From Candidatus Woesearchaeota archaeon UBA489 (lineage in GTDB: Archaea; Nanobdellota; Nanobdellia; SCGC-AAA011-G17; UBA489), in contig DAVM01000020.1 in NCBI GenBank assembly GCA_002505585.1, forward strand, positions 1 through 54,525: DNA of 54,525 nucleotides, given 5' to 3'. The first letter of the stretch is position 1, and each line of letters opens with the position of its first letter. The notes under the pieces were generated by a model. It had not been told where the DNA came from and ran no database searches. It was given only the letters and a program-made list of their open reading frames with translations. Of this stretch, positions 13,915-54,525 are shown one piece after another. Position numbers and translations under genes: made by a program.

Positions 13915-14714
13915 TGACTAAGTTTAAAGATACTTTAAAAAAATTAACTAAGAAGGAATTAGCTTTAGTTCCTCGTGCTTTTGATACTGTTGGTTCTATT
14001 GCTATTTTTAATGAATTTCCTCCTGAGCTTAAGAAAAAGGAGAAATATATTGCTCAAACTTTGATGCAACTCCAACCTAATATTAAGACTGTTGCTAAGA
14101 AGGTTAAACAGTATTCTGGTCGTTTAAGAACTCCTAAGCTTGTTTTGATTGCTGGTTCCAAATCTAAAGAAACTTTGCATGTTGAAAATGGTGTTCGGTT
14201 AAAATTGAATGTGGAGTCTTGTTATTTTTCTACTCGTTCTAGTAATGAAAGAAAAAGAATTGCTAAATTAGTTAAAAAAGGTGAGTCTATTCTTGTTTTA
14301 TTTTCTGGTATTGCACCTTTCCCTTGTGTTATTGCTAAAAATACTAAAGCTAAAGAGGTTGTTGGTATTGAGTTGAATAAAAAAGCTCATAAATTTGCTT
14401 TAGAGAATATTAAGTTGAATAAGTTGCTTAATGTTTCTCTTTTGCATGGTGATGTTAAGAAAATACTTCCTTGTTTGAAAAAGAAGTTTGATCGTATTTT
14501 GCTTCCTCTTCCTAAGTCTGCTGATAAATATTTAAGTCTTGCTTTAAAGAAATTAAAACCTAAAGGAACTTTACATTTGTATTTGTTTGCTGAAGAGAAA
14601 GAATTTAAGGAATTAAAAAAAGAGTACAAGAAGAAGTTTAAATCTGTTAAATTACTTAAATGTGGTATGTATTCTCCTGGTGTGTATAGAGTTTGTTTAG
14701 ATTTAAAAATTTAA
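13914..14714 (+). CDS. trm5: Trm5/Taw2-family SAM-dependent tRNA methyltransferase
   Basis: FDTVGSIA, YFSTRSSNERKRI, LFSGIAPF, GIELN, FDRILLPLP. Confidence 0.8.
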   Translation: MTKFKDTLKKLTKKELALVPRAFDTVGSIAIFNEFPPELKKKEKYIAQTLMQLQPNIKTVAKKVKQYSGRLRTPKLVLIAGSKSKETLHVENGVRLKLNVESCYFSTRSSNERKRIAKLVKKGESILVLFSGIAPFPCVIAKNTKAKEVVGIELNKKAHKFALENIKLNKLLNVSLLHGDVKKILPCLKKKFDRILLPLPKSADKYLSLALKKLKPKGTLHLYLFAEEKEFKELKKEYKKKFKSVKLLKCGMYSPGVYRVCLDLKI

Positions 14715-26444: not shown

Positions 26445-26501
26445 CCTTTGGAGTGTTGGTGAAGTGCTATATGATAAAATTTGAAATGGAGAAAACCTAA
26501 G

Positions 26502-33421: not shown

Positions 33422-33469
33422 GGTATTTAAACAAGATTTGTCTTTCTATTTCAGGAAAAGTTGGTGATA

Positions 33470-35788
33470 ATGATTAACAGACTATATTACTTTGGGATTA
33501 TTTTCATTTTGTTATGTTCCACAGCTTTTGCTTCTTCTTTTGTTATTAAAGGTACGAATGATAAGTTAGAGATTAATGAAGAGTTTGGTGATGCAACTGG
33601 AGCTTTAACTTCTTCAAATCTTGCTGAATTAAAGAGTGGTTCTGTTAAAGCAAAGGAAGGTACTACTACTTATAATCAATACATTAGGTTTAAAGATACA
33701 AAGACAGCCATTGCAAGTCCTATTATTTTGTTAGATAAGTCTGATGCTGGTGATGTTGAAACTTTTTTGAGGATTGCTGAAGGTAGTGCTGTTACTAATG
33801 CTTTTTTTGAGTATCATTTAGAGTTTGAGGATGGTTTAAAATCTAAAGTGAAAGATGATGTTTTGACTAGTATTGATGGTGCAGAAGTAAATATTTTTGG
33901 CAGGGATTATTTGCTTGTTGAGGGTACTTTAAAAAATAATAGGATAAATTTAATTTTTGCTGCTGGTGCTATTGTTGATTACTTAAAAGAGGGTGAACAA
34001 AAAGAGTATACTATTGGTGAAAAAACTTATGTGGTTAATATTAAGACTATTGATGCTACTTCAAAGTCTGCTATTTTAACTGTTAATGGAAAAGATTTAC
34101 AAAAGTTGTCAAAGGCTGAGACTGTTGATTTGGGTGATGGTTTAACTTTGGGTGTGACTGATGTATTAGTTAGTGCTGGAGATAATAATTTTGTGCAGTT
34201 TTTTATTGGTGCTGAGCTCTTAGAGTTTGAGGATACAAATTATGCTGATGATTCTTTTAATAAGGGTGTAAAGCTTAATAAAGAAAAAATTGCTGATGCT
34301 TTTGTAAAAGTTTCTGCTAGTTTAGTAAATGATGTTTTGAAGATTTCTGATATTAAATATAGGGCTCTTGTGAAGACTAATATTCATCTTAAGATTGGTG
34401 AAAAACTTTCTAGTTATATGAAAGATGTTAAGCCTTTGTTAGGTGTTTGGGATTTAACTTTTGATGGTTTAAATTCTGTTGCTTCGTCACAAATTTCTTT
34501 TATTCCTTCAGGTAATGAGGATGAGTATACTCTTTCTTTTAAGAACCTTGATAGTCTTAGTATGAATGTTCCTTTTGTTTCAAACAAGGGATCTTTTAAA
34601 TTTGGTGATGATGATCAAGATGTAGTTTTTGTTGAAGCAAGTTCGCAAACAGGGTATAATATTGATCAAAGTGATTATTTTGTTTTAACTTCAAGTAATG
34701 CTAAGACTGGAAAGACTTACATTATGAAATATGATAGTATTGATACACAAGAACAAACTTTGCAATTTGAACAGGTTGGTGGTGGTTCAAAATCTGTACC
34801 TTATACTAATGCTACTTCTGGTATTTTGGGTGAAGCTGAATTAACTGTTGGTAGTGTTACTGCAAAAATAAATATTGAAGATGCTTCTGGGAATAAATTG
34901 GCTATTGATCAAAATGGTGATGGTGATCATGCTGGTGATGAAATGAATCTTATTGTGGAAGGTGGAGGTATTCTTGATATGGGAAGTTCTAATTCTATTG
35001 CTGGTTCAACTCACTCAATCACTTTAACGACTCCTAATAGTAAATTAGAAGAGTCTTCTACTGATGAAACTATTACTATTGTTTTTGATACTACTCTTGG
35101 TCCTAAAGCAAGTATTCAGTCATCTTTTTCTGGTTTAACTACTTATCGTACTAGTGGTAATCATGTTCTTGGATTAACACCTTATGGGTCTTTTTATGAT
35201 TTAACTGATACTCAAGGTAATGCTGCTGTGTTAAGTATTCATTATCCTAAAGAGCAAGTGTTTACTTCTGCAACTATTTCTTTAGCTGCTGGAAAGGCAG
35301 GTCTTTCTACAAATATTAAGAATATTAAAGTAACTACTTGTTCTAATGGTAAACAAGATGGTGATGAGACTGGTGTTGATTGTGGTGGTTCTTGTGGTGC
35401 TTGTGCTTCTTGTTTTGATAGACAAAAAAATCAAGATGAGACTGGTGTTGATTGTGGTGGTTCTTGTGAAAAAAGATGTGAACCTAAAAAAGACGAAAAG
35501 AAAGGTGAGTGTGCTGATGGTTGTTTACAATCTTTGTCTGGTAAAAAAACTGTTTGTTTAAAAGTTGGTGATATTGTGAAAGAGCGGTATTGTGCAGTTG
35601 ATCAATCTATTAAAGCTCAAAAACGTAATGGTATGGTTTGTAGTGCTGATTATGAGTGTTTAACTAAGAAGTGTGTTGATAGTAAATGTGGTAGGAAAGT
35701 GACTGTTGTGCAGTGGGCTGTGAATGGCGTGATTCTTTTGATTATTCTTGGTGTTTTATGGTATGGTTTTGTTTTGTTGAGAAGGTAA
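33470..35788 (+). CDS. S-layer-like surface protein with Cys-rich stalk and C-terminal TM anchor
   Basis: Signal peptide, acidic beta-rich body, 16 Cys in the C-terminal region, TM VILLIILGVLWYGFVLL followed by RR. Confidence 0.7.
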   Translation: MINRLYYFGIIFILLCSTAFASSFVIKGTNDKLEINEEFGDATGALTSSNLAELKSGSVKAKEGTTTYNQYIRFKDTKTAIASPIILLDKSDAGDVETFLRIAEGSAVTNAFFEYHLEFEDGLKSKVKDDVLTSIDGAEVNIFGRDYLLVEGTLKNNRINLIFAAGAIVDYLKEGEQKEYTIGEKTYVVNIKTIDATSKSAILTVNGKDLQKLSKAETVDLGDGLTLGVTDVLVSAGDNNFVQFFIGAELLEFEDTNYADDSFNKGVKLNKEKIADAFVKVSASLVNDVLKISDIKYRALVKTNIHLKIGEKLSSYMKDVKPLLGVWDLTFDGLNSVASSQISFIPSGNEDEYTLSFKNLDSLSMNVPFVSNKGSFKFGDDDQDVVFVEASSQTGYNIDQSDYFVLTSSNAKTGKTYIMKYDSIDTQEQTLQFEQVGGGSKSVPYTNATSGILGEAELTVGSVTAKINIEDASGNKLAIDQNGDGDHAGDEMNLIVEGGGILDMGSSNSIAGSTHSITLTTPNSKLEESSTDETITIVFDTTLGPKASIQSSFSGLTTYRTSGNHVLGLTPYGSFYDLTDTQGNAAVLSIHYPKEQVFTSATISLAAGKAGLSTNIKNIKVTTCSNGKQDGDETGVDCGGSCGACASCFDRQKNQDETGVDCGGSCEKRCEPKKDEKKGECADGCLQSLSGKKTVCLKVGDIVKERYCAVDQSIKAQKRNGMVCSADYECLTKKCVDSKCGRKVTVVQWAVNGVILLIILGVLWYGFVLLRR
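35363..35468 (+). repeat. Two identical 34-bp direct repeats (35363-35396 and 35435-35468) encoding DETGVDCGGSC
   Basis: gatgagactggtgttgattgtggtggttcttgtg occurs twice, 72 bp apart and in frame. Confidence 0.9.
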
Positions 35789-38320: not shown

Positions 38321-39415
38321 ATGACAAAAGAAAAGAATAAAGCTATTGAATTGATTCGTGATCAAGCTAATAATATTTATCAAAAAATCTTGAAGAGAAA
38401 AAAGCCTGAGATGAAGTTTCCTTTACGTTCTTTGAATAATGTTAAGTATGATACTAAGAAAGGGTTTTTTGAATTAATTGGAAAACATAAAGTTCGTGCA
38501 TTAACTGTGAATACTGTTAAAGGCTTCGCGCAGACTTTACGTATGATGACTTTATCTAAGCAATTAGTTGGTGCTAATGATATTGCTACTAAAAGAGAGG
38601 CTTATTATGTTTCCAAAAATTGGGGTGATGCTCGTTTTAGCGAACAAGTAGAGTCTGATACTGTTTTAGACGATATTGAAGCTATGTTTATGTTAAACCG
38701 TGAGCAACTTGGTTTTATTCCTGAAGAAAAAGGTGGAGATATTGCTGGTGAATTAATTGTTGTTGATAAAGATCCTAATACTGGAAAAGAAATCAAGATT
38801 GATTGTACTAAGTTTGGTTCTGGTGCTTATTCTATTCCAACTTCTGTTGAACAATTAAAGTTTGAAACTAAGGCTAAGTTTATTTTGGCTATTGAAACTG
38901 CTGGTATGTTTCAGCGTTTAGTTAAGCATGGGTATTACAAAAAAACAAATTGTATTTTAATTTCTATGGGTGGTGTTCCAACACGAGCTTGTAGAAGATT
39001 TATTAGAAGATTGTCTGATTCTAAAAAATTACCTGTCTACGCTTTTGTTGACGGTGACTTTTATGGTTGGATGAATATTTATCGTACTTTGAAAGTTGGT
39101 AGTGGTAATGCTGCTCACATTAATGAATATTTTTGTGTTCCTAAAGCTAAATTATTTGGTATTACTGCTGAAGATATTACTAAATATAAATTACCTACTC
39201 ATCCTTTGAAAGATGTTGATATTAAGCGTGGCAAGGATGCTTTGAAAAATGATCCTTTTGTACATCAACATCCTGAATGGCAAAAAGCTATTCAAGATAT
39301 GATCAAGTTAGGGAAAAGAGCAGAGCAGCAAGCGCTTGCAGCTTGGGGTCTAAATTATGTTATGGAAAAATATTTACCTGATAAGTTAAAGAATTCTAAA
39401 AGTTGGTTACCTTAA
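38321..39415 (+). CDS. top6A: DNA topoisomerase VI subunit A
   Basis: TKREAYY catalytic Tyr, AIETAGMF, DGDFYG, KRAEQQA. Confidence 0.96.
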   Translation: MTKEKNKAIELIRDQANNIYQKILKRKKPEMKFPLRSLNNVKYDTKKGFFELIGKHKVRALTVNTVKGFAQTLRMMTLSKQLVGANDIATKREAYYVSKNWGDARFSEQVESDTVLDDIEAMFMLNREQLGFIPEEKGGDIAGELIVVDKDPNTGKEIKIDCTKFGSGAYSIPTSVEQLKFETKAKFILAIETAGMFQRLVKHGYYKKTNCILISMGGVPTRACRRFIRRLSDSKKLPVYAFVDGDFYGWMNIYRTLKVGSGNAAHINEYFCVPKAKLFGITAEDITKYKLPTHPLKDVDIKRGKDALKNDPFVHQHPEWQKAIQDMIKLGKRAEQQALAAWGLNYVMEKYLPDKLKNSKSWLP

Positions 39416-40215
39416 TAGAAGCTATAAGGATCTAATTGGCCACAAATAATTTTCTCTCTTTGCTCTAGAGTCGTTTTAGGAGGACAGAAGCCGAATTCTT
39501 CCCATATAGCTAATTTTGTTAAGTGTTTTGGGTTTTTAGAACCAATCAGTTCCATCCATGTTTTAAGATTTTTCTTTCCAGATAGTGCCACACTACTCCC
39601 TACATATTCTTTTTTAGTTTTTTTATTGTACACTTTATCGTTGTAACGATCATGATAGGAAAAATTGAAATTCTTAAGGATGTTTACTAGGTCTCTTATA
39701 AAATAAGGGTTTCTAAAACTTATTCTAATAACAGGATATTTGTGAAGTTTGCTTTTGTCTTTAGCTTTAAATGTAATTGTACCATCTGTATCTAAGATTC
39801 CTCTTAAAAAGTTAGTTTTTAATTTTTTAGCAGCTGAAAGAATAAATAAAGGAAATCCTTTTGCATAATTTTTATTTCCTATTGGCAGATCACTCTCTTT
39901 CAAAAAATGAAAGATTGCTTTAGAATAAATGCAGAGTCTTACTTCATTCTTCTTTAAAAATAATGTTTTGAACTTAACAGAAAATAATCTTTCAAAAATG
40001 CTCTGAATGTGTATTTGATAATAGCAGAAATCCTCTTTTTTATGTCCAGATAGAACCATTCTATATGTTGTGCTTTTTGGTCTTTTGCAATAATTGATGT
40101 TTCCATCCCCTATCATTGCACCTACAAACTCTGCTAATAAATAATTTTCTTTAGAAGGGATAGTCACACTTTTTTTGAGATCTTTTCTACTAAAATTCTT
40201 ATTTTTTAAACTCAT
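39412..40215 (-). mobile_element. Free-standing double-motif LAGLIDADG endonuclease
   Basis: LAEFVGAMIGDG and FLRGILDTDG; no intein termini; TATA-like element at 40237-40244. Confidence 0.85.
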
Positions 40216-40696: not shown

Positions 40697-40891
40697 ATGA
40701 TTCCTTCGGAAAAAGAGCTTGTTGAGTTTATTAGGAAAAGGGATTTGGTTAACTTTAGTTTAATCGCTAAATTCTTCGATATAAAGAACGCTACTGTTTC
40801 TGATTTAGTTCTTCCTTTGCAAAAGAAGAAGCTTATTGAGATTAAGAAATTGGGGGGCTCAAAGGTTGTTCGTTTGAGGAAGAAAAAATGA
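40697..40891 (+). CDS. Small winged-helix protein
   Basis: NFSLIAKFFDIKNATVSDLVLPLQKKKLIEIKKLGGSKVVRL; stop overlaps the next start (ATGA). Confidence 0.7.
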   Translation: MIPSEKELVEFIRKRDLVNFSLIAKFFDIKNATVSDLVLPLQKKKLIEIKKLGGSKVVRLRKKK

Positions 40892-42861
40892 GGCGTGGTC
40901 AAGTTGCTGCTTTTACAATTTTAGGATTAGTTGTTGTTGCTATTTTTTCCACTGTGTATGTTTTTCGTGAAGAAATTTTTGGTGCTACTTTTGGTAGAGA
41001 AACTTCTCAAGCTTTGGCTGTTCCTCCTCAGGCTGAAAAACTTAGAGTTTTTGTTGATTCTTGTATTGGAGAAGTTGCTGAGGAAGCTTTAAGCACTTTA
41101 AGTTTGCAAGGTGGATACATTAATCTTCCTAGTGCTGATGTTCCTGCTTCACCTGTATACCCTTTCTCTAATAATTTTGATTTGTTTGGTGATAGTGGTA
41201 ATGAAGTTCCTTTTTGGTTTTTTGAGGATGCTTATGGTGTGCAACAAACACAAGTGCCTTCCTTGAGGGATATGGAAAAAGAAATTGAATCTTACATAGA
41301 TGGATTTTTATCTGTATGTATTAATGATTTTGTAACTTTTAAACAACAAGGCTATAGTATTTCCTTTACTCCTCCTAAAGCTGCTGTTACTATTGGTGAA
41401 AAGAATGTTTTGTTTTCTGTTGATTTTCCTATTGATTTTGTTGTTCGTGACTTTGATTTTAGTTTTGATACTTTTAATAAGAGAGTTAGTAGTCCTTTGC
41501 ATGAATTGCATGCTGTTGCTAAGGAAATTTTAGTTTTCGAGAATGAGAATTATTTTATTGAGGATCGTGTTTTGGAGATGATGGTTGTATATGACAACAT
41601 CCCTTTTTCTGGTGTTGATTTTGAGTGTTCTCCTAAGTCTTGGACTAAGACTGATGTATATAATGATTTAAAAAATATTATGGCTAGTAATCTTCCTGCT
41701 ATTAGGATTAAAGGTACTACTTTCACTAAGGGTGTTTCTGCTAAGTCTTTTGTTATTGATGCTTTGAAGAAGAAGCATACTTTAACTTCTTTGTTTGCTT
41801 ACAATCCTTCTTGGCCTTTGTTGATGGAGGTTGTTGGTGAGGATGGTGAGATTTTGCGTGGTGATCCTTTTACTTCTGAGAATGAGGCTAGTCAATTTTT
41901 ATTGCCTTTGTTTTGTTTGAATGATTATCATTTCGTCTACAATTTGAAGTTTCCTGTGGTTATTGCTTTAGAGAAAGAGAATACTGTTTTCCAGTTTGCT
42001 ACTTTGGCTATTGTTCAAAATAATCAGCCTAGAGAGAATAGGGCTAATATTGGTTTGTTTGATGTTGAAACTCCTATTTGTGATTATCCTAGTAAGAAAT
42101 TGAAGGTTGTTGCTGAGGGATATAGGCCTAATAGTGTTGTAAGTTCTTTAGCTGGTGCTAGTATTTCTATGAAGTGTTTGAATCAAGTTTGTAATATAGG
42201 TACTACTCAACTAGAAGGTTCTACTTTTTCTTTAACTAAGCCTGTTCCTTCGTGTTTTAATGGTTTAATGATTGCTGAAAAAGAGGGTTTTCATAGGGCT
42301 GAAAAGCTTGTGTCTACTAATCAAAATCTTGAAGAAGTTGTTGTAACTCTTGAGCCTTTGCATGAAGTTGTTATTGATGTATTAGTTGATGATGAGGGTT
42401 CTTTGCGTGAGCCTTATGCTTCTGAACAAGTATTGTTTACTTTTACTAATAAGGAACAGAAGTATGCTACTAGTGTGATATATCCTTCTCAAAAAAATGT
42501 TAAGTTGGTTGCTGGTTCTTATGAAGTTTCTTCGTCTATAACTATTGAGAGTTCTCAAGGATTTAAATTAAAGAAAAAGGATATTGAGGTTTGTAATGAT
42601 GTTCCTAAAAAGGGTGTTCTTGGTCTTGCTGGTTTGACTAAGAAAGAGTGTACTACTCATACTATTGATGCTACTACTATTAATCAGATTCCTGTTGGGG
42701 GTAGTTCTGTTGATTGGTTTGTGAATAGAGAATCTTTATTAGCTGCAACTGAAGTAACTTTATATGCTTTAAGAGGTCCTACTCCTCAGTCTATTGATGA
42801 GATTACTAAAGTGTATGAGGTTATGCGTGAAAAAGAGGTGAGACGTCCTATACTTAAATAA
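40888..42861 (+). CDS. Large protein with class III (pilin/archaellin-type) signal peptide
   Basis: MRRG|QVAAFTILGLVVVAIFSTVYVF; 657 aa, scattered Cys, beta-rich C-terminal half. Confidence 0.75.
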   Translation: MRRGQVAAFTILGLVVVAIFSTVYVFREEIFGATFGRETSQALAVPPQAEKLRVFVDSCIGEVAEEALSTLSLQGGYINLPSADVPASPVYPFSNNFDLFGDSGNEVPFWFFEDAYGVQQTQVPSLRDMEKEIESYIDGFLSVCINDFVTFKQQGYSISFTPPKAAVTIGEKNVLFSVDFPIDFVVRDFDFSFDTFNKRVSSPLHELHAVAKEILVFENENYFIEDRVLEMMVVYDNIPFSGVDFECSPKSWTKTDVYNDLKNIMASNLPAIRIKGTTFTKGVSAKSFVIDALKKKHTLTSLFAYNPSWPLLMEVVGEDGEILRGDPFTSENEASQFLLPLFCLNDYHFVYNLKFPVVIALEKENTVFQFATLAIVQNNQPRENRANIGLFDVETPICDYPSKKLKVVAEGYRPNSVVSSLAGASISMKCLNQVCNIGTTQLEGSTFSLTKPVPSCFNGLMIAEKEGFHRAEKLVSTNQNLEEVVVTLEPLHEVVIDVLVDDEGSLREPYASEQVLFTFTNKEQKYATSVIYPSQKNVKLVAGSYEVSSSITIESSQGFKLKKKDIEVCNDVPKKGVLGLAGLTKKECTTHTIDATTINQIPVGGSSVDWFVNRESLLAATEVTLYALRGPTPQSIDEITKVYEVMREKEVRRPILK

Positions 42862-42862
42862 A

Positions 42863-45800
42863 ATGAGGCAAGTTTTTGGAAAAAGAGAGAGAGCTGTATT
42901 CATTATTCTACTTATGTTCTTTTTACCTATGCAACAAGTTGTTGCTCAGCGTTCTTCTGAGTTTGAAAATTTAAAAGAGCGAACTAAAAACATTCCTCAG
43001 GATTTTAGGGATCAGGCTGAAGTTATTGGTGGACAATTAAATGACCGTTTTGATTCTGGTGTCCCTGGTGAGCTTGGTACTATTGGTGAGGATATTATTT
43101 TGCAAGTGAAGGAATATCAGCCTAAGATTATTCGTTCTTCTTTGTTGGAAGATCAGGGTGTGTTCGTGTATGCTTTATTAAGTGGTCAACCTACTAATCC
43201 TACTATTAGTATTCCTAATATTAAGAATGTTGTTATTCGGAGACAGAAGGTTACTACAAATCCTGTTGGTGCTCCTGTTTCTATTGGTCGTGTTCGTCAC
43301 ATTAAGCCTTCTCGTGCTGAGTTGAGTTTTGATAATATGGGGTATATGGTTATTCCTATTCGCCAGATTCCTAGGGAGAATGATGTTCCTGATGAGGTGC
43401 TTGTTGATGTTGATGCACGTATCTTTTTTGATGTTTCTGAGGGGTTAACTTTTGGTCCTACTAAGGATATTTTGGTTGAACAAAATAAGGATCAGTGGGC
43501 TTTAACTAAGGAGGATCATAGTTTTTATGCTGGGTTTATTCGTGTGTCTGAAATTTCTGATATTGGTGCTACTGTTGCTTTGTATGATAATAATGTGAAT
43601 GAAGTTCGTGGTTCTCCTATAGAATTAAAGGTTGGTCAAACTTCTCGTTCTTTGAGTGCTAGGTCTGAGTTTGGGTATTCTCGTACTGGGAAGATTTTTG
43701 ATAGATTTAATTTGAAGCTTGATCGTATTACTGCTTTGAGTGATAAGGCTCGTTTGATTATTTCTCGTGATGGTAAGGTTGAGACTAGGACTTTGTCTGA
43801 GGGTGAATTTTTGTATCCTGGTTCTAGTTGGTTTATTGAAAATATTATCACTGATGTTCGTGGTGAGGAGTTTACTGTTAAGTTGCGTAATCGTAATAGT
43901 TTTGGTGCATTTGGTGGTTCTGCTTCTAAGAAGTTGGCTTGTACTGATTTTTGTGAATTAAAGGCTAAGAAGTTAAAGATTAATGCTTCTTTGCCTCCTG
44001 TTCCTGCTAAAAAGCCTAAGACTGCTGTTCCTCAAGATAAAAGTCTTGTTGCTTATAAAAATATTAAAGAGAAGGAGTATGATAAGGTTGTTATTGATTT
44101 AGGTAAGGGGTTTAAGGATTATTCTAGTGTTGTAAAAAATTTGGAAAAGTTAAGAAAAGCTACTAGTCCTCTGACTTCTTTAGCTACTAAGAATTTGATT
44201 GATAATTTGTTGAAAACCATTCAGAGAGAGTATAATGCTAAACGTGTTGAAAGACAGTTGGCTATTAATCGTGATAATCATTCTATCATTACTAAAGATG
44301 TTGAAGTTATGTATGAATATATGCTTAAATTAAACCAAAAACTTGCTGGAGATAAAACTCGTTTGCCTTCTGCTCAAAAAACTGATGCTTCTGCTACTGG
44401 TTTGATTGCTTATCAGCAGGCTAGAGAAGAGTACCAAAAAGTTATTGATGGATTTACTTCTTCTAAAGATCTTGAAATTAGGAAGCATGTTGCTAAAGCT
44501 CATTGGCGTATTGCTAATTTGCCTGGTGATATTGTTAGTAAAGATTCTAGAATTCAGCATTTAGATGTTTTGCTTAATAATTTTGAAGTTATTGAGTATG
44601 ATGGGTTTACTAAACAAAATTTGGAAATCTTGTTGAAGATTTTAAAGTCTTTGCAACTTGATTACCAAAGTGTTAGTCAAGAGCTTTCTGAGCCTTCTAC
44701 TGGGGAAATTTTTTCTGTTTTGTTGGCTGGTGCTGAAAAGGCTTCTGCTAAGTTGAAGTCTCGTGCTACTTTAACTTTGGATGGTGCTAGGACTAATACT
44801 TATATTGAAGGCGAACCTCTCTTGTGGCCTGAGACTGGTTCTCCTGGTTCTATTAGGTGGAATGTTAAAGAGATTAATACAAGGAGTGTTATTATTGCTC
44901 GTGCTGATAGTGGAGAAACTATTAGAATTAATTTAAATGCTGAGGTTGATAAAGTTCCTATTTTGCCTGGTGCTGGTAATGTTCGTAAAGTTAAGTTGAT
45001 TGATACTGATGTAAAAAAAGAGGCTCATGTTACTATTAGTCCTGTTGTTGAGAGTGCTTATTCTGAGGCTATTTTTAGTTTGCATCTTCCTATTGAAAAG
45101 CGTGCTTTTGATTTGCCTCTTTTTTCTGATACTGTTGAGGAAGAGATTGTTAAGACTGAGGATTTATTGGAAGATTTGAATGAAATTGTAGAGAATGTTC
45201 GTGAGATTACTGAGTATTGGCAAAAGATTTGTTTGGTTACTTTTGGTGTGTTGTGGGCTAAAAACTTTTTAGCTGGTGCTTTTGGTAAAGGTAATGCTGC
45301 TGATGCTAGACAAAAGGTTGGTTCTATGTATAAAGAAAAGTATGCTCATTGTCAGACTCTTGATCGTTCTGATCCTGAGAGTTGTGCTGGTAAGACTTAT
45401 GAGCAGTTTGTTTTCAGTAAGCAAGCAGAGTATGAAACTGCTATTGAGCAATCTTCTAAGATTACTGAAGGTATTCAGAACTTAGAAAGTAGTGGGTATT
45501 ATACTAAACAAGAAAATTTTCCTGAATTAGGTAAAGAGTATAATGGTGCTAAGGCTGAGTTGTATTATTATGAAGAGATGAGTAAATTGCATCCTAATGA
45601 TGAGACTACTAAGACTAAGGTTTTGACTTTGAGGTCGCAGTTAAAGCATTCTGATTTAGAACGGCAGTTTTCTGATGTGTATTTTGAGGATGGTCGGTTA
45701 AAGACTTTTGATGAGTTAGGGTCTAATGCTAAAGGTATTGTAGGAGCTACTATAAATTACCCTGGATTAAAGCCTGCTCGTGATGAGTTGATTAGTAAGT

Positions 45801-48800
45801 TGTCTGATGCTGAAAAGGTAAAAATTGCTGAAGCTACTAAGAATGGTATTTTTGAACAACATGTTTGGAATACTCATGGTAAAAAATTAATTCCTTATTA
45901 CAAGGAATCTATTGTGAAACAACAGCTTGGTACTTATATTACTACTGATTTGAAAAAACAATATAGTGTTGAACAAAAGCATCTTGATAATTTATTTGAA
46001 GCTCATCGTATTAAAAATGTTGATAGTGCTTTGGTTGGTAATTTCAAGCATGCTCCTAGTTTGTCTTTTGCTACTAAGGGTAAGGGGAAAGATAATGTTG
46101 AGTTTGTTTCTATTGATGCTTTGCATTATGTGCAAGTTTCTTATCGTACTGGTGGTCGTGTTGAAAAGTATGAATTGTTCCGTCGTTCTTCTCCTAATAG
46201 TCAGATGGGTCATAGGAGTGATGTATATTTAGGTGTTGTTGATGAACAATTGTTAACTAATTATCGGAAGTCTGGCACTGATGATCATAAGTCTCTTTCC
46301 AAAAATTTGGATAATGTTCGTAGTTGTATTAGTCGTATTAATAAACAGAATAGTAAGACTAAATATTCTAGGTCTGATAAAGTGCAGACTAAACCTATTG
46401 GTTGTTCTGGTTTGGGTAATTATGTTGTTAAGAATTCTGTGCAAGGTTCTGATAGGAGTTGTACTGATTTCATGAGTCCTTCTGATTGTAAATTGTTATT
46501 CAATGCTTGTGATCCTGTTATTTGTCCTACTTCTCGTTGTAATCTTGGCGGTGATTGGCCTGTTGAGAATGTTGCTGAGACTGGTATTATTGGTAGTGCT
46601 TTGCTTTGTTTGCCTAACTTTATTGGTGTTGATAAGGATGCTGGGGTAGTTATGCCTGTTTGTTTAACTGGTATTCATGCTGGATTACAAAATATTCGTT
46701 CTATTATTGAAGGCTACCGTCAGTGTTTGATTACTGCTAAGGTTTCTGGTCGTTCTGTTGGTATTTGTGATCGTATACGTTCTTTTGGTATTTGTGAAGT
46801 GTTGTGGAAGGAGGGTATGGCTCTTGTGAGTGCTAAGGAAGGTATTTTAGGTAAGTTGATTGGTGCTTTAAGTGATGATGATGGCAGTGGTGCTTCTGGT
46901 GGTGGTGAATATTCTGCTTTCCAAGATACTTTGGATAATAGTGCTGAGAGTTTGAAGTTCTTTACTCAGTCTTATGCTAAGAATACTTTTGCTCGTTACT
47001 CTGGTGGTTCTCTTCCAGAAATTGGTACTGAGATTTGTAAGGCTGCTATTTTTAGGAAGGCTCCTGGTGTTGGTAATTTCTTTGATGAAGTTACTCGTCC
47101 TGAAAGTCCTCCTCAGTTTAATGCTTTCTTTGATGAAGTTCCTTATTCTGATATTGGTGAGCGTTCTTTGAGTCAGTATAAAATCTTTTATCATGTGTAT
47201 GCTGGTGAGACTAGTGGTGTTTCTCCTGTGACTTATAGTGTTTGGTTGCAGTCTAAGGATCCTTATACTAATGAGTTTATTTATCCTCCTCAGTTTTTGC
47301 GTGATTCTCGTGGTATTGTTCGTGGTCGTCGTTTGCCTTCTGGTGGTTTTGCTAGTGAGGCTCCTGATATGATTTTACCTACTGGTATGCAAGAAATTTG
47401 TGTTGAGATTGTTACTGACACTTATGGTCGTCGTGTTGAGTGTGGTTTTGGTAAGGTTTCTACTGGTTTTGCTTTGAATTATGTTACTGATAAATTTACT
47501 CAGGGTGAATTAAATAAAAAGATTAATAGTGCTAGTGAATGTGTTTCTAAATCTTCTACTATTGCTGATGCTGTTTCTGAGCGTGGTTTAGTTGCTGGTG
47601 TTGGTGTTGGTGTTGTTGGTACTGTTTCTAGTGGTTTTACTTCTACTGGTATTGTTAGAAAGTGTTCTAAGGTTTCTCCTGGTATTGGCGGTGATGAGGC
47701 TAAGTGGAGTCCTGTTGGTAGTTGTGGTATTGATGATCTTGATCGTGATATGGGTACTTGTTGGTTGTATGTCCCTACTGCTCAAAATTTGATTAAACAA
47801 GTTAGTGCTCGTACGCAATTCCAAAACACTTTGAATGAAACTGCTCGTCGTGTTATTGCAGAGGCTGAAAAGGCTGGTAGTCCTATTCCTGGTTTTGAGG
47901 TGTTAGAGAAAAAAGAGATTCAGACTTTGTTTGATCTTGCTAAGACTGCTCGTGAGGATGCTATTAAAACTAATGATGTTGCTAAGTTTGTTCCTGCTAG
48001 GAAGAATTATAACAAAATTAGAAGTGCTTATGCTGTTGATGAAAAGTTTGGTGCTAATGCTCAGTTCTTTTTGGCTGAGACTTATTGGGAGGAAGCTCGT
48101 ATTTTAATTGCTACTAATAGTTTGGTTAATGCTGCTGCTGCAACTATTAAGTCTATGCGTGGTGTTAGAAGAATTACTTTACCTCATCCTCCTGTGCCTA
48201 TGGCAAAGAATTCGATGGTTGAAATTGAAATTTTTGGTACTGTGCATAAGTTTGAAGTTAAGAGCATGAGTGGTGGGAAGATTACTTTAGAAGTGCGTTC
48301 TACTCCTCAAGAGTTCTTGTTGAAACAAAAAGATAAAGCTATTGAGGTTGATGTGAATGGGGATAGAAAGCCTGATATTACTATACAGTATGTTAAAGAT
48401 AAAGCTTTGAATGCTCCTGGACTTGGTGAGGTTGTTGCTGGCATGGTTTGGTTTAAAGAAATAAAAGCAAGTACTCCTGCTCCTAAAGTTCCTAAAGTTC
48501 CAAAGGATCCTAAAGACCCAAAAGATCCTACACCTAGTACTTCTGGAAAAAAGTGTACTTCTAATGGTTTTTGGGCTGATAGTGCAGGCAAACGTTTACC
48601 TACAAAATCTGGTTCTAGTCCTGAAGTTGCTACTGGCACTCCTGTTGCTATTGTAGTGAATGCAATTAATTGTAATGGGAAAACTTTGAAGGTTGGTATT
48701 GAAGAGAACGATGATTATTTTGATGAATCAGTTAGTGGTTTTCCTAAAGAGATAAAGATTGATGCTGATGGTACTGTAACAAAATTGGTTCCTTGGACTA

Positions 48801-51085
48801 CTGAATATTTGGATGATGGTTGGTTTGGTGGTAATCCTGAATTTATTTTTAGGATTTTTTATGGTGAGGAAGAGTTATTTAAGTTACTTGATAGGTATGA
48901 ATTAGTTGTTACAAAGAATAAATATACTGGACCTCTTGCTCCTTCAATAAAACCAGTTATTAAAAGTATTACTCCTTCTATTTTGTTGGATGGTGAGCCT
49001 GCTGTTGTAGAGATAGTTGGAGAGAATTTTGACAAAAATGTTCAAGTGTTTTATCCTACGGTTTCTAAACCAGATCTTATGCATTTGAGAAAAGATAGAG
49101 AAGTAATTTGGGTGTCTGATAAATTATTAAAAGTTGATTTAACAAAGAGTCTTCCTCTTCCTGGCTGGCATTTTAGTTTACTTGTAAGAAATCCTGATAA
49201 ACAGGTGAGTAATCTAGAACCTGTTACTGTATTGCCTAAAGGGATTTTGTTTGTTGTTATGAAGGAGGATGCAAGTACTCCTTCTGGTTTTGAGGCGGAC
49301 ATTCGTGTGGTTAATCCTGATACTGGAAGAAATTATCGTATTCAGACAGCAAAATCTTCTTCTTGGGTTAATTGGGTTGATGATCTTGTTGAACATAATG
49401 GTAGAATTTATGGAGCTATGAGGCCGAACGTTATTCCTGGGACTGTTTCAGAAATTTTTGATATGTTTAGTGATGATCGTGCTGCTAGGCGTGATAGTTC
49501 AACATTTGCTTTAGTGTCTCATGATGGTGAGTTATATGATGCTGGTTTGTATGGTTTTAAGGAAACGTTTGGGAGTGGTTCTATTAGTGGCATGGAGGTT
49601 TATGATATGGTTTCCAATGATGGTAAGTTTTATGCTGCTACAACTACTGGTATTTTTGCAAAGAGTGGTGTTCCTACTAGTGGTAATCTTAAATATCTAT
49701 ATTATATGGTATCTGGTGAAGTGCATACTTTAACAGCGCATAAGGATAAAATTTACTATAGTGAAGGATTTGATATTTTTGTAGATGATGAGCCTATTCC
49801 TCTAAAGAGTAGGGCTGATGAATTAATTGCTTTAGTGTCTTATAATGGTAAATTGTATGATGTAAGTGATAAAATAAGGAACACTGAAACTGATCAGGTT
49901 GTTTTTGATCCTGTTGGTAAGGAAATTTCTGCTGCTTTGTCTTTAGAGAAGCTTTCAAAAGTTGTAGCTCCTTTACCTTCTCCAACCCCTCCAACTCCCG
50001 CTCCTATAACACCATCTCCTAGTGCTACTAAAGAACATGCTTGGGCTTGGTATTATAATGCTAAAAAGTATGAAGTTAAGGTTGATATTCCTGCTGCTTT
50101 AACTGAACGATATTATAAATTAAAGCCACATCCTACTGGTGAGATTGGTGGTGATTACACACCTTATGTGTTGGATTCAGATGATGATGTTGTTATTCGT
50201 GGTATTGCTAGACAAATTTTGGAGATTGCTAACGCTGAAAACATGGATGATTGGCAAAAGTTCTTTTTAGTTTCTTCTTTTGTTAAAGGAAACTTTGCGT
50301 ACCAATTAGATGCTGTTTCCGCTATGTGTTCTGAATATCCTCGTTATCCTTTGGAAATGATTTTGAGTGCTCGTGATAATAAGTTAGGTATTGGTGATTG
50401 TGAGGATGCTGCTATTTTAACTGCTGCTTTGTTGAAAGAATTAGGCTATGATATTTCTATGGTAGTTTTAGGCCCTGTAAAACCTGGTGATGGTGCTCAT
50501 GCTTCTCTTGCTGTGAAGTGTGATGCTCCTTTCCCTCCTGCACATTTTAAGGTTCCTCCTCTTGCTTGGGATTTTGCTGGAAAAAAGTATTGTTATTATG
50601 AAGCGGTTGTTTATTCAAATACTTGTTTAACTGAGTACAAATCTCGTTTCCCTAGTTTGACTGATCTTGGAGCTTATGCTGCTCCTTGTCAATTGAAAAT
50701 TGGGGAGATTTTTGCTGATTTTGCTCGTGAGCTTGATTTAACTAATCCTGAATTAGCACGATTAGTAAGCCCGAAAGCATATCTAAAATCTATTTCAGCC
50801 AATCTTAAATCTGACGGTACTTTTGAGCTTACAATAAAAAACACTGGCTCTGTGATTGCTAAAAATGTTTGGATAAACAAGATCTTTGGAGTAGATGCAA
50901 CTGGTACTCCTACCACTACTCCTCGGAATTCTGCTAAGGTTGATATTCCTGCTGGAGAAGAAAGAAAGCTTGTTATTGGTTTTTCTTCTGCTGAAATTGA
51001 TGTGTTGAAGGCTGCTACCAAAACACGTGTTTTTATTGATGCTGATAATGCGAAAATGTTTCTAGCAGGCTTTAATTTTACTTAA
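42863..51085 (+). CDS. Giant (2740 aa) secreted modular protein: Cys-rich core, IPT/TIG-like domain, beta-propeller-like repeats, transglutaminase-like domain
   Basis: Signal peptide; Cys cluster near 46320-46800; PVIKSITP..VEIVGENF; five LVxHxGxLY-type repeats; YPRYPLE...GDCEDAAILTAALL...HASLAV...YYE. Confidence 0.8.
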   Translation: MRQVFGKRERAVFIILLMFFLPMQQVVAQRSSEFENLKERTKNIPQDFRDQAEVIGGQLNDRFDSGVPGELGTIGEDIILQVKEYQPKIIRSSLLEDQGVFVYALLSGQPTNPTISIPNIKNVVIRRQKVTTNPVGAPVSIGRVRHIKPSRAELSFDNMGYMVIPIRQIPRENDVPDEVLVDVDARIFFDVSEGLTFGPTKDILVEQNKDQWALTKEDHSFYAGFIRVSEISDIGATVALYDNNVNEVRGSPIELKVGQTSRSLSARSEFGYSRTGKIFDRFNLKLDRITALSDKARLIISRDGKVETRTLSEGEFLYPGSSWFIENIITDVRGEEFTVKLRNRNSFGAFGGSASKKLACTDFCELKAKKLKINASLPPVPAKKPKTAVPQDKSLVAYKNIKEKEYDKVVIDLGKGFKDYSSVVKNLEKLRKATSPLTSLATKNLIDNLLKTIQREYNAKRVERQLAINRDNHSIITKDVEVMYEYMLKLNQKLAGDKTRLPSAQKTDASATGLIAYQQAREEYQKVIDGFTSSKDLEIRKHVAKAHWRIANLPGDIVSKDSRIQHLDVLLNNFEVIEYDGFTKQNLEILLKILKSLQLDYQSVSQELSEPSTGEIFSVLLAGAEKASAKLKSRATLTLDGARTNTYIEGEPLLWPETGSPGSIRWNVKEINTRSVIIARADSGETIRINLNAEVDKVPILPGAGNVRKVKLIDTDVKKEAHVTISPVVESAYSEAIFSLHLPIEKRAFDLPLFSDTVEEEIVKTEDLLEDLNEIVENVREITEYWQKICLVTFGVLWAKNFLAGAFGKGNAADARQKVGSMYKEKYAHCQTLDRSDPESCAGKTYEQFVFSKQAEYETAIEQSSKITEGIQNLESSGYYTKQENFPELGKEYNGAKAELYYYEEMSKLHPNDETTKTKVLTLRSQLKHSDLERQFSDVYFEDGRLKTFDELGSNAKGIVGATINYPGLKPARDELISKLSDAEKVKIAEATKNGIFEQHVWNTHGKKLIPYYKESIVKQQLGTYITTDLKKQYSVEQKHLDNLFEAHRIKNVDSALVGNFKHAPSLSFATKGKGKDNVEFVSIDALHYVQVSYRTGGRVEKYELFRRSSPNSQMGHRSDVYLGVVDEQLLTNYRKSGTDDHKSLSKNLDNVRSCISRINKQNSKTKYSRSDKVQTKPIGCSGLGNYVVKNSVQGSDRSCTDFMSPSDCKLLFNACDPVICPTSRCNLGGDWPVENVAETGIIGSALLCLPNFIGVDKDAGVVMPVCLTGIHAGLQNIRSIIEGYRQCLITAKVSGRSVGICDRIRSFGICEVLWKEGMALVSAKEGILGKLIGALSDDDGSGASGGGEYSAFQDTLDNSAESLKFFTQSYAKNTFARYSGGSLPEIGTEICKAAIFRKAPGVGNFFDEVTRPESPPQFNAFFDEVPYSDIGERSLSQYKIFYHVYAGETSGVSPVTYSVWLQSKDPYTNEFIYPPQFLRDSRGIVRGRRLPSGGFASEAPDMILPTGMQEICVEIVTDTYGRRVECGFGKVSTGFALNYVTDKFTQGELNKKINSASECVSKSSTIADAVSERGLVAGVGVGVVGTVSSGFTSTGIVRKCSKVSPGIGGDEAKWSPVGSCGIDDLDRDMGTCWLYVPTAQNLIKQVSARTQFQNTLNETARRVIAEAEKAGSPIPGFEVLEKKEIQTLFDLAKTAREDAIKTNDVAKFVPARKNYNKIRSAYAVDEKFGANAQFFLAETYWEEARILIATNSLVNAAAATIKSMRGVRRITLPHPPVPMAKNSMVEIEIFGTVHKFEVKSMSGGKITLEVRSTPQEFLLKQKDKAIEVDVNGDRKPDITIQYVKDKALNAPGLGEVVAGMVWFKEIKASTPAPKVPKVPKDPKDPKDPTPSTSGKKCTSNGFWADSAGKRLPTKSGSSPEVATGTPVAIVVNAINCNGKTLKVGIEENDDYFDESVSGFPKEIKIDADGTVTKLVPWTTEYLDDGWFGGNPEFIFRIFYGEEELFKLLDRYELVVTKNKYTGPLAPSIKPVIKSITPSILLDGEPAVVEIVGENFDKNVQVFYPTVSKPDLMHLRKDREVIWVSDKLLKVDLTKSLPLPGWHFSLLVRNPDKQVSNLEPVTVLPKGILFVVMKEDASTPSGFEADIRVVNPDTGRNYRIQTAKSSSWVNWVDDLVEHNGRIYGAMRPNVIPGTVSEIFDMFSDDRAARRDSSTFALVSHDGELYDAGLYGFKETFGSGSISGMEVYDMVSNDGKFYAATTTGIFAKSGVPTSGNLKYLYYMVSGEVHTLTAHKDKIYYSEGFDIFVDDEPIPLKSRADELIALVSYNGKLYDVSDKIRNTETDQVVFDPVGKEISAALSLEKLSKVVAPLPSPTPPTPAPITPSPSATKEHAWAWYYNAKKYEVKVDIPAALTERYYKLKPHPTGEIGGDYTPYVLDSDDDVVIRGIARQILEIANAENMDDWQKFFLVSSFVKGNFAYQLDAVSAMCSEYPRYPLEMILSARDNKLGIGDCEDAAILTAALLKELGYDISMVVLGPVKPGDGAHASLAVKCDAPFPPAHFKVPPLAWDFAGKKYCYYEAVVYSNTCLTEYKSRFPSLTDLGAYAAPCQLKIGEIFADFARELDLTNPELARLVSPKAYLKSISANLKSDGTFELTIKNTGSVIAKNVWINKIFGVDATGTPTTTPRNSAKVDIPAGEERKLVIGFSSAEIDVLKAATKTRVFIDADNAKMFLAGFNFT
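48482..48529 (+). repeat. 9-bp tandem repeat encoding PKV-PKV-PKD-PKD-PKD-P linker
   Basis: cctaaagtt cctaaagtt ccaaaggat cctaaagac ccaaaagat cct. Confidence 0.85.
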
Positions 51086-51089
51086 AAAA

Positions 51090-51887
51090 ATGTTGTTCAA
51101 AAAGTCTTTCTTAATTTTGAAGAAGAAGTTTGCTTCTTTGTTTTTGTTAGAGCTTGCTTTTGTTTTTTCTTTGTTATTTTTTTTAGTTTTTGTTAAAGAT
51201 AAGATTAGTGGATATTTAGCTCTTATTCGTGGATTAACTCCTCAGTTGGCTGTTTTGCAGAAGGCTGCTGAAACTAATATTGCTGATGCTACTGCTTTGG
51301 TTGCTTTGTCTGATTTTCAGTCTGTTACTTCTGGTGCTTTGAATTTTGCTTATGTTGTTGTTCCTTTAGTGTTGTTTGTTCTTTGGTGTGTTTTTCAGTC
51401 TTCTTTGTGGTTTTGTTTAAAGAATGAGTCTTTGAAGTCTTTTGGTTCTTTTTTTAAAAAATTTGTTGTTGTTTCTTTAATCCTTTTTGGTCTTTTGTAT
51501 GTTGTTCTTAAGTCTATTCTTAAAGATGTTTTGAGTTCTGGTGCTTTGGACACTTCTTTTGCTCAGATTGTTTTGTTGAGTTTTGTTTTCTTTTATTTTT
51601 CTCTTGTTGCTTTTGCTTGTTTAAGTAAAGATCCTTTAAAGAAGTTTTTCAAAAGATTTTTGTTTATTTCTTTTAAAAGAGTTTTTTCTGTTCTTTTACC
51701 TATTTTCTTATTTTTTAGTTTAGTCTTTGTTGGTTTCGTCTTTTTGTTCGGCCCTCTATTTTTGCAATTTTGGGTTGGTGGTGAAGATCGTGTGATGGTT
51801 GGATTAGTGTTGTATTTGGTTGTTTTAATTGTTGTTTCTCTTTATTTGAAAATCTTCATTAATTTGAAGGTTGCAGAATTAAAATAA
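51090..51887 (+). CDS. Multi-pass membrane protein of unknown function
   Basis: About six Phe/Leu/Val-rich hydrophobic segments; starts 4 nt after the giant ORF. Confidence 0.75.
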   Translation: MLFKKSFLILKKKFASLFLLELAFVFSLLFFLVFVKDKISGYLALIRGLTPQLAVLQKAAETNIADATALVALSDFQSVTSGALNFAYVVVPLVLFVLWCVFQSSLWFCLKNESLKSFGSFFKKFVVVSLILFGLLYVVLKSILKDVLSSGALDTSFAQIVLLSFVFFYFSLVAFACLSKDPLKKFFKRFLFISFKRVFSVLLPIFLFFSLVFVGFVFLFGPLFLQFWVGGEDRVMVGLVLYLVVLIVVSLYLKIFINLKVAELK

Positions 51888-52445: not shown

Positions 52446-54525
52446 TTACTCTTCATAAATCTCTTGTAATTTATTCATAACTTTATCTTGGTTCGTATCC
52501 TTACCAGATTTTCCAACAATTTCGTAACTAGTTTCGCCAGTTTTGCGATAATAAAGGCGAGCACCATTTCTCCCTCGTAAGTAAAAAATATCTGTTTCTT
52601 TTATATGTCCTGGTTTGCCTAATCCTGCTTCAAAATTTCCTTTTAGTAATTCTTCTGTTAGATGATTCATTTCTCTTTGGATTGCTCCACTTCTAGTTGC
52701 TTCTTCAGCTAAAGAAACAAGGCGCTTATCTTTTTTAATATTGCTGGTTAAAGTAATTTTGTTCAGTGAAGGAGCTGTTTTTGGTGCAGATGAAACAGGA
52801 CTTGCTGCTATTTTTTCTTTTGGGAAAACATAATCCATTACCTCTTGAGGTGATCCACGGCGTACAACATCTCCCTGTACAACAAACATATCATCTACTA
52901 TTTCTCTTCCAGCTTGCTCGTCTAATATAAGAAGTTGCTCTAATTCTTTTCTTGTGGTAATCGTTTGAATCCCTCGATTTCCCCAGCCAACGTCATAAGT
53001 AAAAGCAATTTTCCCATCTGGAGAGATTTCTAAAGCATTACCAGTAGTTGTTCTATGATATTTTGCAAGTTCTTCTGATCCTTTTGCATAGATATTTAGC
53101 TTTTGAAAAGCTTCTAGAGATCTTGGACTAGCTGCTATTAGTTGGGGAATAGTCTCAGGTTGTCCTGCAACTTTTCTTGGCAGTGTCCCTTCAGGTAATG
53201 GTGTTGATCCATAAAATCCTCCATCGATGTATTCTTCTAAATCATAGGCTGTTGTTTTTGCTGGTGAACTTCCAGTTTTTTGTATTAAGGTTAAAGTATC
53301 ACTGCCTTCTTCTAAAATGACATAAGTATATCCTCCAGGGCTTCCTTCTGTTGCTGGATACATGATTTTTTCTATTTTGATTCTTGTCCTTGGTCCACTC
53401 GGTGATGGTATCTCTATCCAATTTTGTCTATATTCTAAAGCGCTTATATCTCCACTAGTTCTTCCCCAACTAGGATAGGGTGTTGCAACACTTGTGCGTA
53501 GAATGTCTTCTGGAGTTTTTGCATCTTTTAATTCTTGAAGTTGAGTTTTTGTTCTTGCAATAAGTTCTGTTTGTTTCTTAACCACTTCACTTTTAAGTGC
53601 TTCATCAAAAACTGCTTTTTTGGAGATTTTGCTTATCTTTTTTCTAGTATCCTCAGATAGAGAACTACTATATCTCAAACCATTTGAAGAATCTTCAAGA
53701 AACTCCTCAAGGATTTCTCTTGGAGTTAATTTCCCGCCAGTTTTGCTGTTATATTTTGGGAAAGATATGCCAGTTTCATAGCTTAATTTCTGTCTTGCGG
53801 AAACCATTTGAGCTTCTGTTCCTCCATCCAGAGCTGCTCTTGCTTTTTGTCTTGCTTTTTCTATGCTAAGAAAGAAAGGAGTGTCACTGACAAATTCTAG
53901 ATTTTGTTGTAGGGCTCTTTTCCTTTGTTTTTTAAGTTTAGACAAGTCCATATGTGCTATTCCTTTTGGATCAAAAGTAGTTAAGATTTCTTTAAAAGGG
54001 TGTAGTGGATGAGTATGAGATGTTATCCTATTTCCTGTTGTTTGTGTTTTTGGCAGTGATAAAACAGTTCCTGGGCTACTAAATTCTTGAGCATTTTGTA
54101 TTCTTTTGGCTAACGAAATAACTTCTTCGTCAGTAAGTTCTTTTAATGGTTTGTTTATGCCCATTGCAGGTAAATTCAGATTAGAGAGGTAATCTTTTTT
54201 TAAAATAGAAATTTGTTCTTTTAAATTTTTAGAGGAAGTGGTCAATAGTTCAGGTTCTAAGCTTCCAGGTTGTGTTTTCGTAAATCCTTTAGTTTTAGTT
54301 AAATCTTCTACTCTTTTTTGGTAATGAACAATTTGAGTACTTGTTTCTTTTAAATTTCCTTGAAATCCTTCTGGTAAACTTCTTTTATCTTGAAGGTAAA
54401 TAACTCTTTCTTCTTTAGGAACTATTTGTGTTGGTTGTTCTATGATTGTAACACTTCCATCAGGATTTCTTTTTATTGTTGTAGGAATAATGCCTCCAAT
54501 CTCTACTTCTCCAGCTCTTGCTCCT
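52446..54525 (-). CDS. Partial large protein (5' end outside window) with C-terminal RelE/HigB-like toxin domain
   Basis: Frame checked by hand and open from 54245 to the window edge (...RAGEVEIGGIIPTTIKRNPDG...). After the linker SPVSSAPKTAPS: LLKGNFEAGLG...IFYLRGRNGARLYYR...YEIVGKSGKDTNQDKVMNKL. Confidence 0.78.
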   Translation of the reverse strand, partial: GARAGEVEIGGIIPTTIKRNPDGSVTIIEQPTQIVPKEERVIYLQDKRSLPEGFQGNLKETSTQIVHYQKRVEDLTKTKGFTKTQPGSLEPELLTTSSKNLKEQISILKKDYLSNLNLPAMGINKPLKELTDEEVISLAKRIQNAQEFSSPGTVLSLPKTQTTGNRITSHTHPLHPFKEILTTFDPKGIAHMDLSKLKKQRKRALQQNLEFVSDTPFFLSIEKARQKARAALDGGTEAQMVSARQKLSYETGISFPKYNSKTGGKLTPREILEEFLEDSSNGLRYSSSLSEDTRKKISKISKKAVFDEALKSEVVKKQTELIARTKTQLQELKDAKTPEDILRTSVATPYPSWGRTSGDISALEYRQNWIEIPSPSGPRTRIKIEKIMYPATEGSPGGYTYVILEEGSDTLTLIQKTGSSPAKTTAYDLEEYIDGGFYGSTPLPEGTLPRKVAGQPETIPQLIAASPRSLEAFQKLNIYAKGSEELAKYHRTTTGNALEISPDGKIAFTYDVGWGNRGIQTITTRKELEQLLILDEQAGREIVDDMFVVQGDVVRRGSPQEVMDYVFPKEKIAASPVSSAPKTAPSLNKITLTSNIKKDKRLVSLAEEATRSGAIQREMNHLTEELLKGNFEAGLGKPGHIKETDIFYLRGRNGARLYYRKTGETSYEIVGKSGKDTNQDKVMNKLQEIYEE

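Follow-up and report, generated by a model that had tools for sequence, protein, structure and literature searches.

LapG, a protease that releases giant adhesins, and its relative DvhG belong to the bacterial transglutaminase-like cysteine proteinases (BTLCP; Peptidase_C93, PF06035), which combine a transglutaminase fold with a helical N-lobe and an acidic loop of the form [DE]-Y-x-x-x-P-x-E (PMC13090378, PMC4359373). LapG is calcium dependent, and in DvhG the Asp and Glu beside the Cys bind calcium, with D316A/E318A and C317A each abolishing activity (PMC13090378). The fold is common also to factor XIII and TG2, and to PeiW and PeiP, which are archaeal envelope-active enzymes. Among true transamidases, the typical nucleophile motif is Q-C-W. 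Here we describe a module of this fold in a stretch of 54,525 nucleotides from Candidatus Woesearchaeota archaeon UBA489 (contig DAVM01000020.1; the whole stretch is referred to below as the window). The module forms the end of a giant open reading frame (ORF) of 2,740 aa (42863..51085, + strand), occupying its last 351 codons plus the stop (50030-51085), with the codon of residue 2390 at nucleotide (nt) 50030. It is the sole recognisable catalytic domain within the giant, and is very probably an intact transglutaminase-fold catalytic domain. Fold and chemistry are already known and ordinary; the in-cis fusion to a giant archaeal surface protein in one small lineage is the new part. The module bears on how DPANN archaea, whose genomes measure 0.5-1 Mb, attach to and breach the envelopes of partner cells; almost no domains can be recognised in the giant surface proteins of these archaea. 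It also opens the way into a family of at least 936 clusters of sequences, found in methanogens, Bathyarchaeia, Thermoplasmatota, Chloroflexota and others.

Architecture and predicted fold of the module

The giant protein opens with a hydrophobic signal or anchor segment (residues 10-29), followed by an order-wide core (approximately residues 1-1750 with that segment included) and a lineage-specific C-terminal extension (approximately residues 1760-2740); no C-terminal anchor was found in it. A Pro/Thr-rich linker, PLPSPTPPTPAPITPSP (residues 2370-2386, 49970..50020, + strand, as for all parts of the giant), lies immediately 5' of the module, and the giant ends with a TAA stop codon (51083-51085). 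Module residues are numbered from 1 below, and adding 2389 gives the residue number in the giant. An initial annotation, made by reading the sequence, had proposed a transglutaminase-like Cys-His-acid module at this end of the protein, and homologs, conservation, predicted topology and structural matches all bear the proposal out. The motifs on which it drew are present in the ORF translation and correctly numbered, namely YPRYPLE, GDC(2513)EDAAILTAALLKELGY, H(2546)ASLAV and YYE(2580), followed by FELTIKNTG and DIPAGEERKLV in the tail.

The module starts with a prelude beta-hairpin (module residues 1-19, WAWYYNAKKYEVKVDIP, 50030..50086), modelled by AlphaFold2 (AF2) as strands 2-9 and 12-19 with a predicted local distance difference test (pLDDT) score above 90. 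This hairpin is a hallmark of the family, its W7 being kept in 145 of 151 representatives. Next comes a helical N-lobe (50102..50392), supported by hhalign, the profile match to PDB sequences and conservation, which ends in an acidic loop reading D94...E102-YPRYP-x-E109. In the alignment this loop falls opposite the calcium-loop region of LapG. The catalytic core (module residues 122-196, 50393..50617) was placed by AF2, Foldseek and conservation, and holds G-D-C124-E-D, H157 and E191. A connector modelled with low confidence (module residues 197-250, 50618..50779, pLDDT 49-78) contains Cys2588 and Cys2609. Most relatives have a shorter connector; a 985-aa representative (P0003), the best match of the module, shares this one. 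The last part is an Ig-like, CARDB-type beta-sandwich tail (module residues 251-351, 50780..51082).

Conservation was measured on an hmmalign alignment of 151 representatives, one per 50%-identity cluster, and points to a Cys-His-Glu triad. The predicted nucleophile, Cys2513 (module C124; TGT, 50399-50401), is flanked by D2512 and E2514 and is invariant (151/151), as are D123 and E109. The predicted general base, His2546 (H157; CAT, 50498-50500), is present in 149 of the 151 (the other two have gaps) and is paired by hhalign with the LapG His. Glu2580 (E191; GAA, 50600-50602), in the motif Y-x-Y-x-E-T-T, is the predicted third triad residue, with 141 Glu and 3 Asp among the 151 and 7 gaps. Around these, E125 (147/151), D126 (149/151) and D94 (146/151) are nearly invariant, and E102 is likewise among the conserved acidic positions. 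D2570 (module D181), which lies at a LapG-like spacing, was rejected as the third triad residue: this position is acidic in 77 of 151 representatives, versus 144 of 151 for that of E2580.

The AF2 model was computed with a 58-sequence alignment and replaced an earlier single-sequence model of poor quality (pLDDT 47). It has a predicted template modelling score of 0.72, and its pLDDT is mostly above 85 over residues 1-160 and 76-88 over residues 161-190. C124 opens a helix (124-137), H157 opens a strand (157-163), and E191 closes a hairpin (179-190). The modelled secondary-structure topology matches the papain/transglutaminase arrangement, and is consistent with the triad. When the model was compared with the PDB by Foldseek, a check that the initial annotation had suggested, all top matches had the transglutaminase fold. 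They were led by the Cytophaga putative cysteine protease 3isr (E 1.9e-3) and LapG 4u65 (E 2.6e-3, probability 1.0), and also included the bacterial transglutaminase 4xz7, factor XIII and TG2.

The Ig-like tail, also part of the original proposal, is supported less strongly than the catalytic part. Its beta strands (residues 252-320) were modelled at pLDDT 55-72, falling below 40 after residue 320. Three of 43 relatives match CARDB (Pfam PF07705; E down to 1.6e-9); the family consensus reaches 18.9 bits versus a cut-off of 22.7, and the window's own tail gives no match. An Ig-like tail follows the catalytic part in approximately half of the family members. Within the tail-coding region lies a 110-aa antisense ORF with a TTG start (50689-51021, - strand), which is most likely spurious because the sense frame is conserved.

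Five cysteines of the module are non-catalytic (2489, 2553, 2577, 2588 and 2609). Since C2489, C2553 and C2577 are common to P0003 and to the ortholog of the giant in a sister genus (genome G339), and are rare in the wider family, they suggest subfamily-specific disulfides, as would be expected of an extracellular domain.

A phmmer search with the 351-aa module against 1.84 billion representatives returned 936 matches at E<=1e-3 and 112 at E<=1e-10, the best (E 4.9e-40) being P0003, and by these values the family signal is far beyond chance. The 936 clusters come from archaea and from some anaerobic bacteria. In order, the hallmarks of the family are a W-x-W-x-Y hairpin, a helical lobe, D...EYPRYPxE...GDCED, GHMAVGV and YxYxETT. 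An N-terminal hydrophobic segment was predicted in 118 of 150 relatives, whose median length is 362 aa, and the family thus consists mainly of membrane-anchored or secreted exoproteins, mostly of 200-600 aa. A pattern scan of one genome per species located 226 loci. The archaeal ones are in Methanocaldococcus, Methanosarcinales, Methanocellales, Archaeoglobaceae, Bathyarchaeia, Hadarchaea, Nitrososphaera, Thermoplasmatota and Poseidoniia, and the bacterial ones in Chloroflexota, Desulforudis, Bipolaricaulota, Thermotogae and Syntrophomonadaceae.

Other searches were less productive. The module gave only a chance Ig match by phmmer against PDB sequences and no match by tblastn against 50,697 phage records. 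A word-indexed homolog search with the single sequence found one match with the module, and with the giant plus its region found only itself. Literature searches found no characterisation of the family. The nearest Pfam model is DUF553 (PF04473, cut-off 20.5), which is family 3 of Makarova, Aravind and Koonin 1999 according to PMC10318531. Against this model the isolated module reaches 22.9 bits over residues 78-165, a span that includes the Cys and His, and the full protein 19.5. The family sits at the edge of this model, because relatives too (from Methanocaldococcus, Methanothermococcus, Archaeoglobaceae, Methanogenium and Desulforudis) score 17-22 bits; E<=1e-3 is reached by 15 of 43 relatives. 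The family is therefore at the margin of DUF553 and effectively uncovered by Pfam. We know of no demonstrated function for DUF553.

Kinship with LapG and candidate activities

Among characterised families, profile and structural similarity place the module nearest to LapG/BTLCP, the calcium-dependent protease that releases adhesins, and not to PeiW/PeiP. The family profile matched LapG among PDB sequences (4fgo, E 1.8e-9; 4u65, E 4.5e-8), placing the family's DEYpRYPIEtLvdggGDCEDtaI opposite LapG DDYWKSPVEFIVDGGGDCEDFAI. By hhalign, the family was compared with six LapG genes from environmental plasmids, four of which adjoin an EAL-domain, LapD-like gene, and aligned over 108 columns with 97.6% probability (E 4.6e-12); the alignment takes in the helical lobe and the acidic positions as well as GDCED and the strand of the His. 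D2512-C2513-E2514 reproduces the calcium-type D-C-E motif of LapG and DvhG, and in the alignment D123, E125, E109 and D94 of the module fall on the invariant D, E and D positions of LapG, so that the BTLCP calcium motif can be read in the sequence. The likeness to LapG/DvhG thus extends from the fold, the helical N-lobe and the acidic loop to the G-D-C-E-D nucleophile motif, whose D and E bind calcium in those enzymes, and to an H-M-x-V His strand, and both enzymes are associated with a giant surface protein.

The differences are also clear. LapG is the closest functional analogue, whereas the enzyme described here forms one chain with a giant archaeal protein, joined in cis to its C-terminus, in an organism without a periplasm. 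There is no LapD/DvhD receptor here, a search of the module's own genome with PF06035 found no other BTLCP, and unlike LapG the module adds the prelude hairpin and the CARDB-like tail.

We lean towards reading the module as a calcium-dependent extracellular cysteine hydrolase that uses Cys2513-His2546-Glu2580, is carried on a surface giant and cuts envelope proteins, as sequence and model together suggest. From its LapG-type D-C-E motif it would be a calcium-dependent peptidase or isopeptidase, inactive at the low calcium level of the cytoplasm and active once exposed to seawater. The free C-terminal end of a giant exported by the Sec route would display it, together with the CARDB-like Ig domain, and its substrates could be proteins in the envelope of a host or partner cell, or surface proteins of the archaeon itself. 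We infer calcium dependence, hydrolysis rather than cross-linking, and distal extracellular display; hydrolysis is preferred because the nearest relatives are hydrolases and because the nucleophile motif is GDCED and not QCW.

Several observations weigh against this proposal. The hhalign alignment with LapG stops before the third triad acid, which in the module is a Glu placed after an extra hairpin, approximately 27 residues past the His in the consensus of the family and 34 in this protein, whereas the LapG triad Asp lies approximately 17-18 residues past the His, a spacing at which the module position (D181) is acidic in only about half of the representatives. Scores against the established LapG models are low, at 14.1 bits for Peptidase_C93 (cut-off 27) and 12.5 bits for NCBIfam LapG (cut-off 320). 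A six-residue insertion, SARDNK (approximately module residues 114-119, nt 50369-50386), separates E109 from G122. It is found only in this protein among the aligned sequences (43 and 58), being absent from the G339 ortholog and from P0003, and it falls in the putative calcium loop, which is a calcium-binding region in LapG. A LapG-type cleavage site ([T/A/P]AAG) is absent, there being no AAG motif in the giant. Among 56 adjacent same-strand genes at 80 family loci in other species there is no recurrent Pfam family, and gene context therefore gives no clue to the substrate. Lastly, an internal hydrophobic segment with a borderline score (giant residues 789-807) leaves the membrane topology of the giant unproven.

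A true transglutaminase, which would form a Cys-Gln thioester and transfer it to Lys or an amine, cross-linking the giant to a partner surface or stabilising the archaeon's own envelope, is an unlikely alternative to hydrolysis, though the best placed of those we weighed. Acyl-enzyme chemistry can run either way, the fold is that of factor XIII and TG2, the nearest Pfam model is named 'transglutaminase-like', and DUF553 is given a generic transferase description in a review (PMC10318531). Factor XIII, TG2 and 3isr further resemble the module in their core fold and in a long-type spacing from His to acid with an intervening hairpin. However, the eukaryotic transglutaminases have a beta-sandwich and barrel architecture that is missing here, the module scores 15 bits against Transglut_core (PF01841) versus a cut-off of 23, and the best profile matches are hydrolases. 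Q-C-W is absent at the module's nucleophile, which reads G-D-C-E-D as in LapG.

The SARDNK insertion in the putative calcium loop could also indicate a pseudo-enzyme, a catalytically silent binding module used for adhesion. We regard this as improbable, given that Cys, His, Glu and all of the acidic loop residues are intact both here and in the ortholog.

PeiW and PeiP had been brought into the initial annotation as members of the same superfamily, and this part of the comparison holds: PeiP (8z4f) was found by Foldseek at rank 17 (E 0.067, probability 0.82) and PeiW (8jx4) at rank 23, the order of Cys then His is shared, and both residues are colinear with those of PeiP in the alignment. Close kinship, in contrast, was not supported. 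The family aligned with PeiP of phage psiM2 at a probability of 8% by hhalign, no Peptidase_C71 match was found at E<=0.1, PeiP ranked fifth in the viral structure library (E 0.18), tblastn against phage genomes returned nothing, and the structural match is weaker than that of LapG. Unlike PeiW and PeiP, the module is not accompanied by pseudomurein-binding repeats. To our knowledge, pseudomurein is confined to Methanobacteriales and Methanopyrales, which are unlikely partners of a marine DPANN archaeon. It is thus very improbable that the module is a PeiW/PeiP-like endoisopeptidase cutting a wall peptide cross-link such as that of pseudomurein.

Equally hard to sustain is the reading that a polymorphic-toxin-like carrier delivers the module into a partner cell as its C-terminal effector or toxin. 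This would suit the C-terminal placement behind a Pro/Thr linker and the variable C-terminal third of the orthologs, but the Ig-like tail follows the enzyme, which is therefore not the very end of the chain. In addition, most relatives are anchored exoproteins that stand alone, in archaea and bacteria that live freely, and no small gene is paired with them, the adjacent 265-aa membrane protein has a homolog where the tip is absent, the tip has diverged as much as the core (34% identity), and the calcium-type site suggests activity outside cells.

Distribution and history of the tip on the giant scaffold

We compared the distribution of the enzyme module with that of the giant's Cys-rich core (window 46400-47500, approximately residues 1180-1546). 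The core occurs once each in 48 of 61 genomes of the order, at 39-60% identity and in frames mostly of 1,800-2,250 aa (range 1,800-3,300 aa); it has no Pfam match and is a single-copy, order-wide marker. In the phylum, 128 of 401 genomes contain the enzyme module, nearly always within a frame of 190-600 aa. It is single-copy in its own genome, and lies inside a giant only here (2,747-aa frame) and in G339, from a sister genus of the same family (2,262 aa).

In G339 the giant sits in the same operon, beside the same tRNA-Thr and tRNA-Val genes. Identity to the window's giant is 34% both over residues 11-1741 and over the tip, in which GDCED, the His and YCYFE are intact. Between core and tip (window approximately 48150-50029) the two giants carry unrelated cassettes: a PK[VD] repeat, an IPT-like domain and blade-like repeats in the window, and a short CARDB-like segment in G339 (residues 1778-1926). 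P0003 has the same tip and one of the upstream cassettes on a far shorter protein. In another genus of the family (G235), the same operon encodes a giant of 1,833 aa that stops shortly beyond the core, without the C-terminal extension, and four genomes of that genus contain no copy of the module at all. Because the core is order-wide, and the tip is on the giant only here and in G339 and is absent from G235, the comparison indicates that the enzyme tip was added to a conserved scaffold in this lineage only. Within its lineage it appears to have been passed on vertically. The fusion illustrates how a conserved giant scaffold gains enzymatic tips. Near-identical cluster members differ from the giant by one residue (D2221N) and are uninformative about variation in the population.

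A bolder extension of the hydrolase reading is that the giant unites 'LapG and LapA in one chain', as a device of an episymbiotic archaeon in which a calcium-gated tip opens the host S-layer or forms a covalent thioester/isopeptide tether. We consider this doubtful. If true, the giant would be an enzymatic grappling hook, and the occurrence of the tip in only two genera would mark a host-specific adaptation.

Operon, organism and other features of the window

The giant belongs to a tight block of four genes on the + strand. Upstream of it are genes for a 64-aa winged helix-turn-helix (wHTH) protein (40697-40891) and for a 657-aa protein whose N-terminus carries a hydrophobic segment (40888-42861), and 4 nt 3' of its stop begins a 265-aa multi-pass membrane protein (51090..51887); none of these three neighbours has a Pfam match. 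This operon of wHTH, approximately 660-aa protein, giant and membrane protein is kept in both of the further genera inspected within the family, and the wHTH and 657-aa genes are syntenic in both G339 and G235. In an order-level relative (G056), a 662-aa protein and the giant are present, and matches to the wHTH and membrane proteins are absent. The membrane protein was also considered as a tip-specific partner or immunity protein; this was ruled out, as it follows the tipless giant in G235. It is a core-operon member and not a dedicated partner of the enzyme tip.

With a GC content of 33%, the window codes for archaeal MCM, topoisomerase VI, CDC48 and an ATPase that contains an intein, and the assembly is 766 kb in length and 91% complete, all of which fits a DPANN-type archaeon. 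Tara data contain copies nearly identical to the giant protein, and the organism is therefore marine. The ATPase is an 857-aa HerA/Zot-like protein (14703-17276, - strand), whose intein includes a LAGLIDADG endonuclease. The tRNA-Thr gene bordering the operon has a free-standing LAGLIDADG-like ORF of 267 aa (39412-40215, - strand) immediately upstream of it.

Exported proteins of the window are strongly depleted in N-x-[ST] sequons relative to composition shuffles. The giant (42863-51085) has 4 sequons versus 15.7 ± 3.4 expected, a number as low as this arising in 0 of 300 shuffles. Its 657-aa operon partner (40888-42861) has none (4.5 expected), a 775-aa protein (33461-35788) has one (6.8 expected), and a 717-aa protein (26481-28634) and a 599-aa protein (52446-54245, - strand) have none (3.3 expected in each). 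Sequons in the cytoplasmic MCM, CDC48 and topoisomerase I are at expectation. The same genome encodes an STT3/AglB homolog (31.8 bits, G000:C11:14966-16141).

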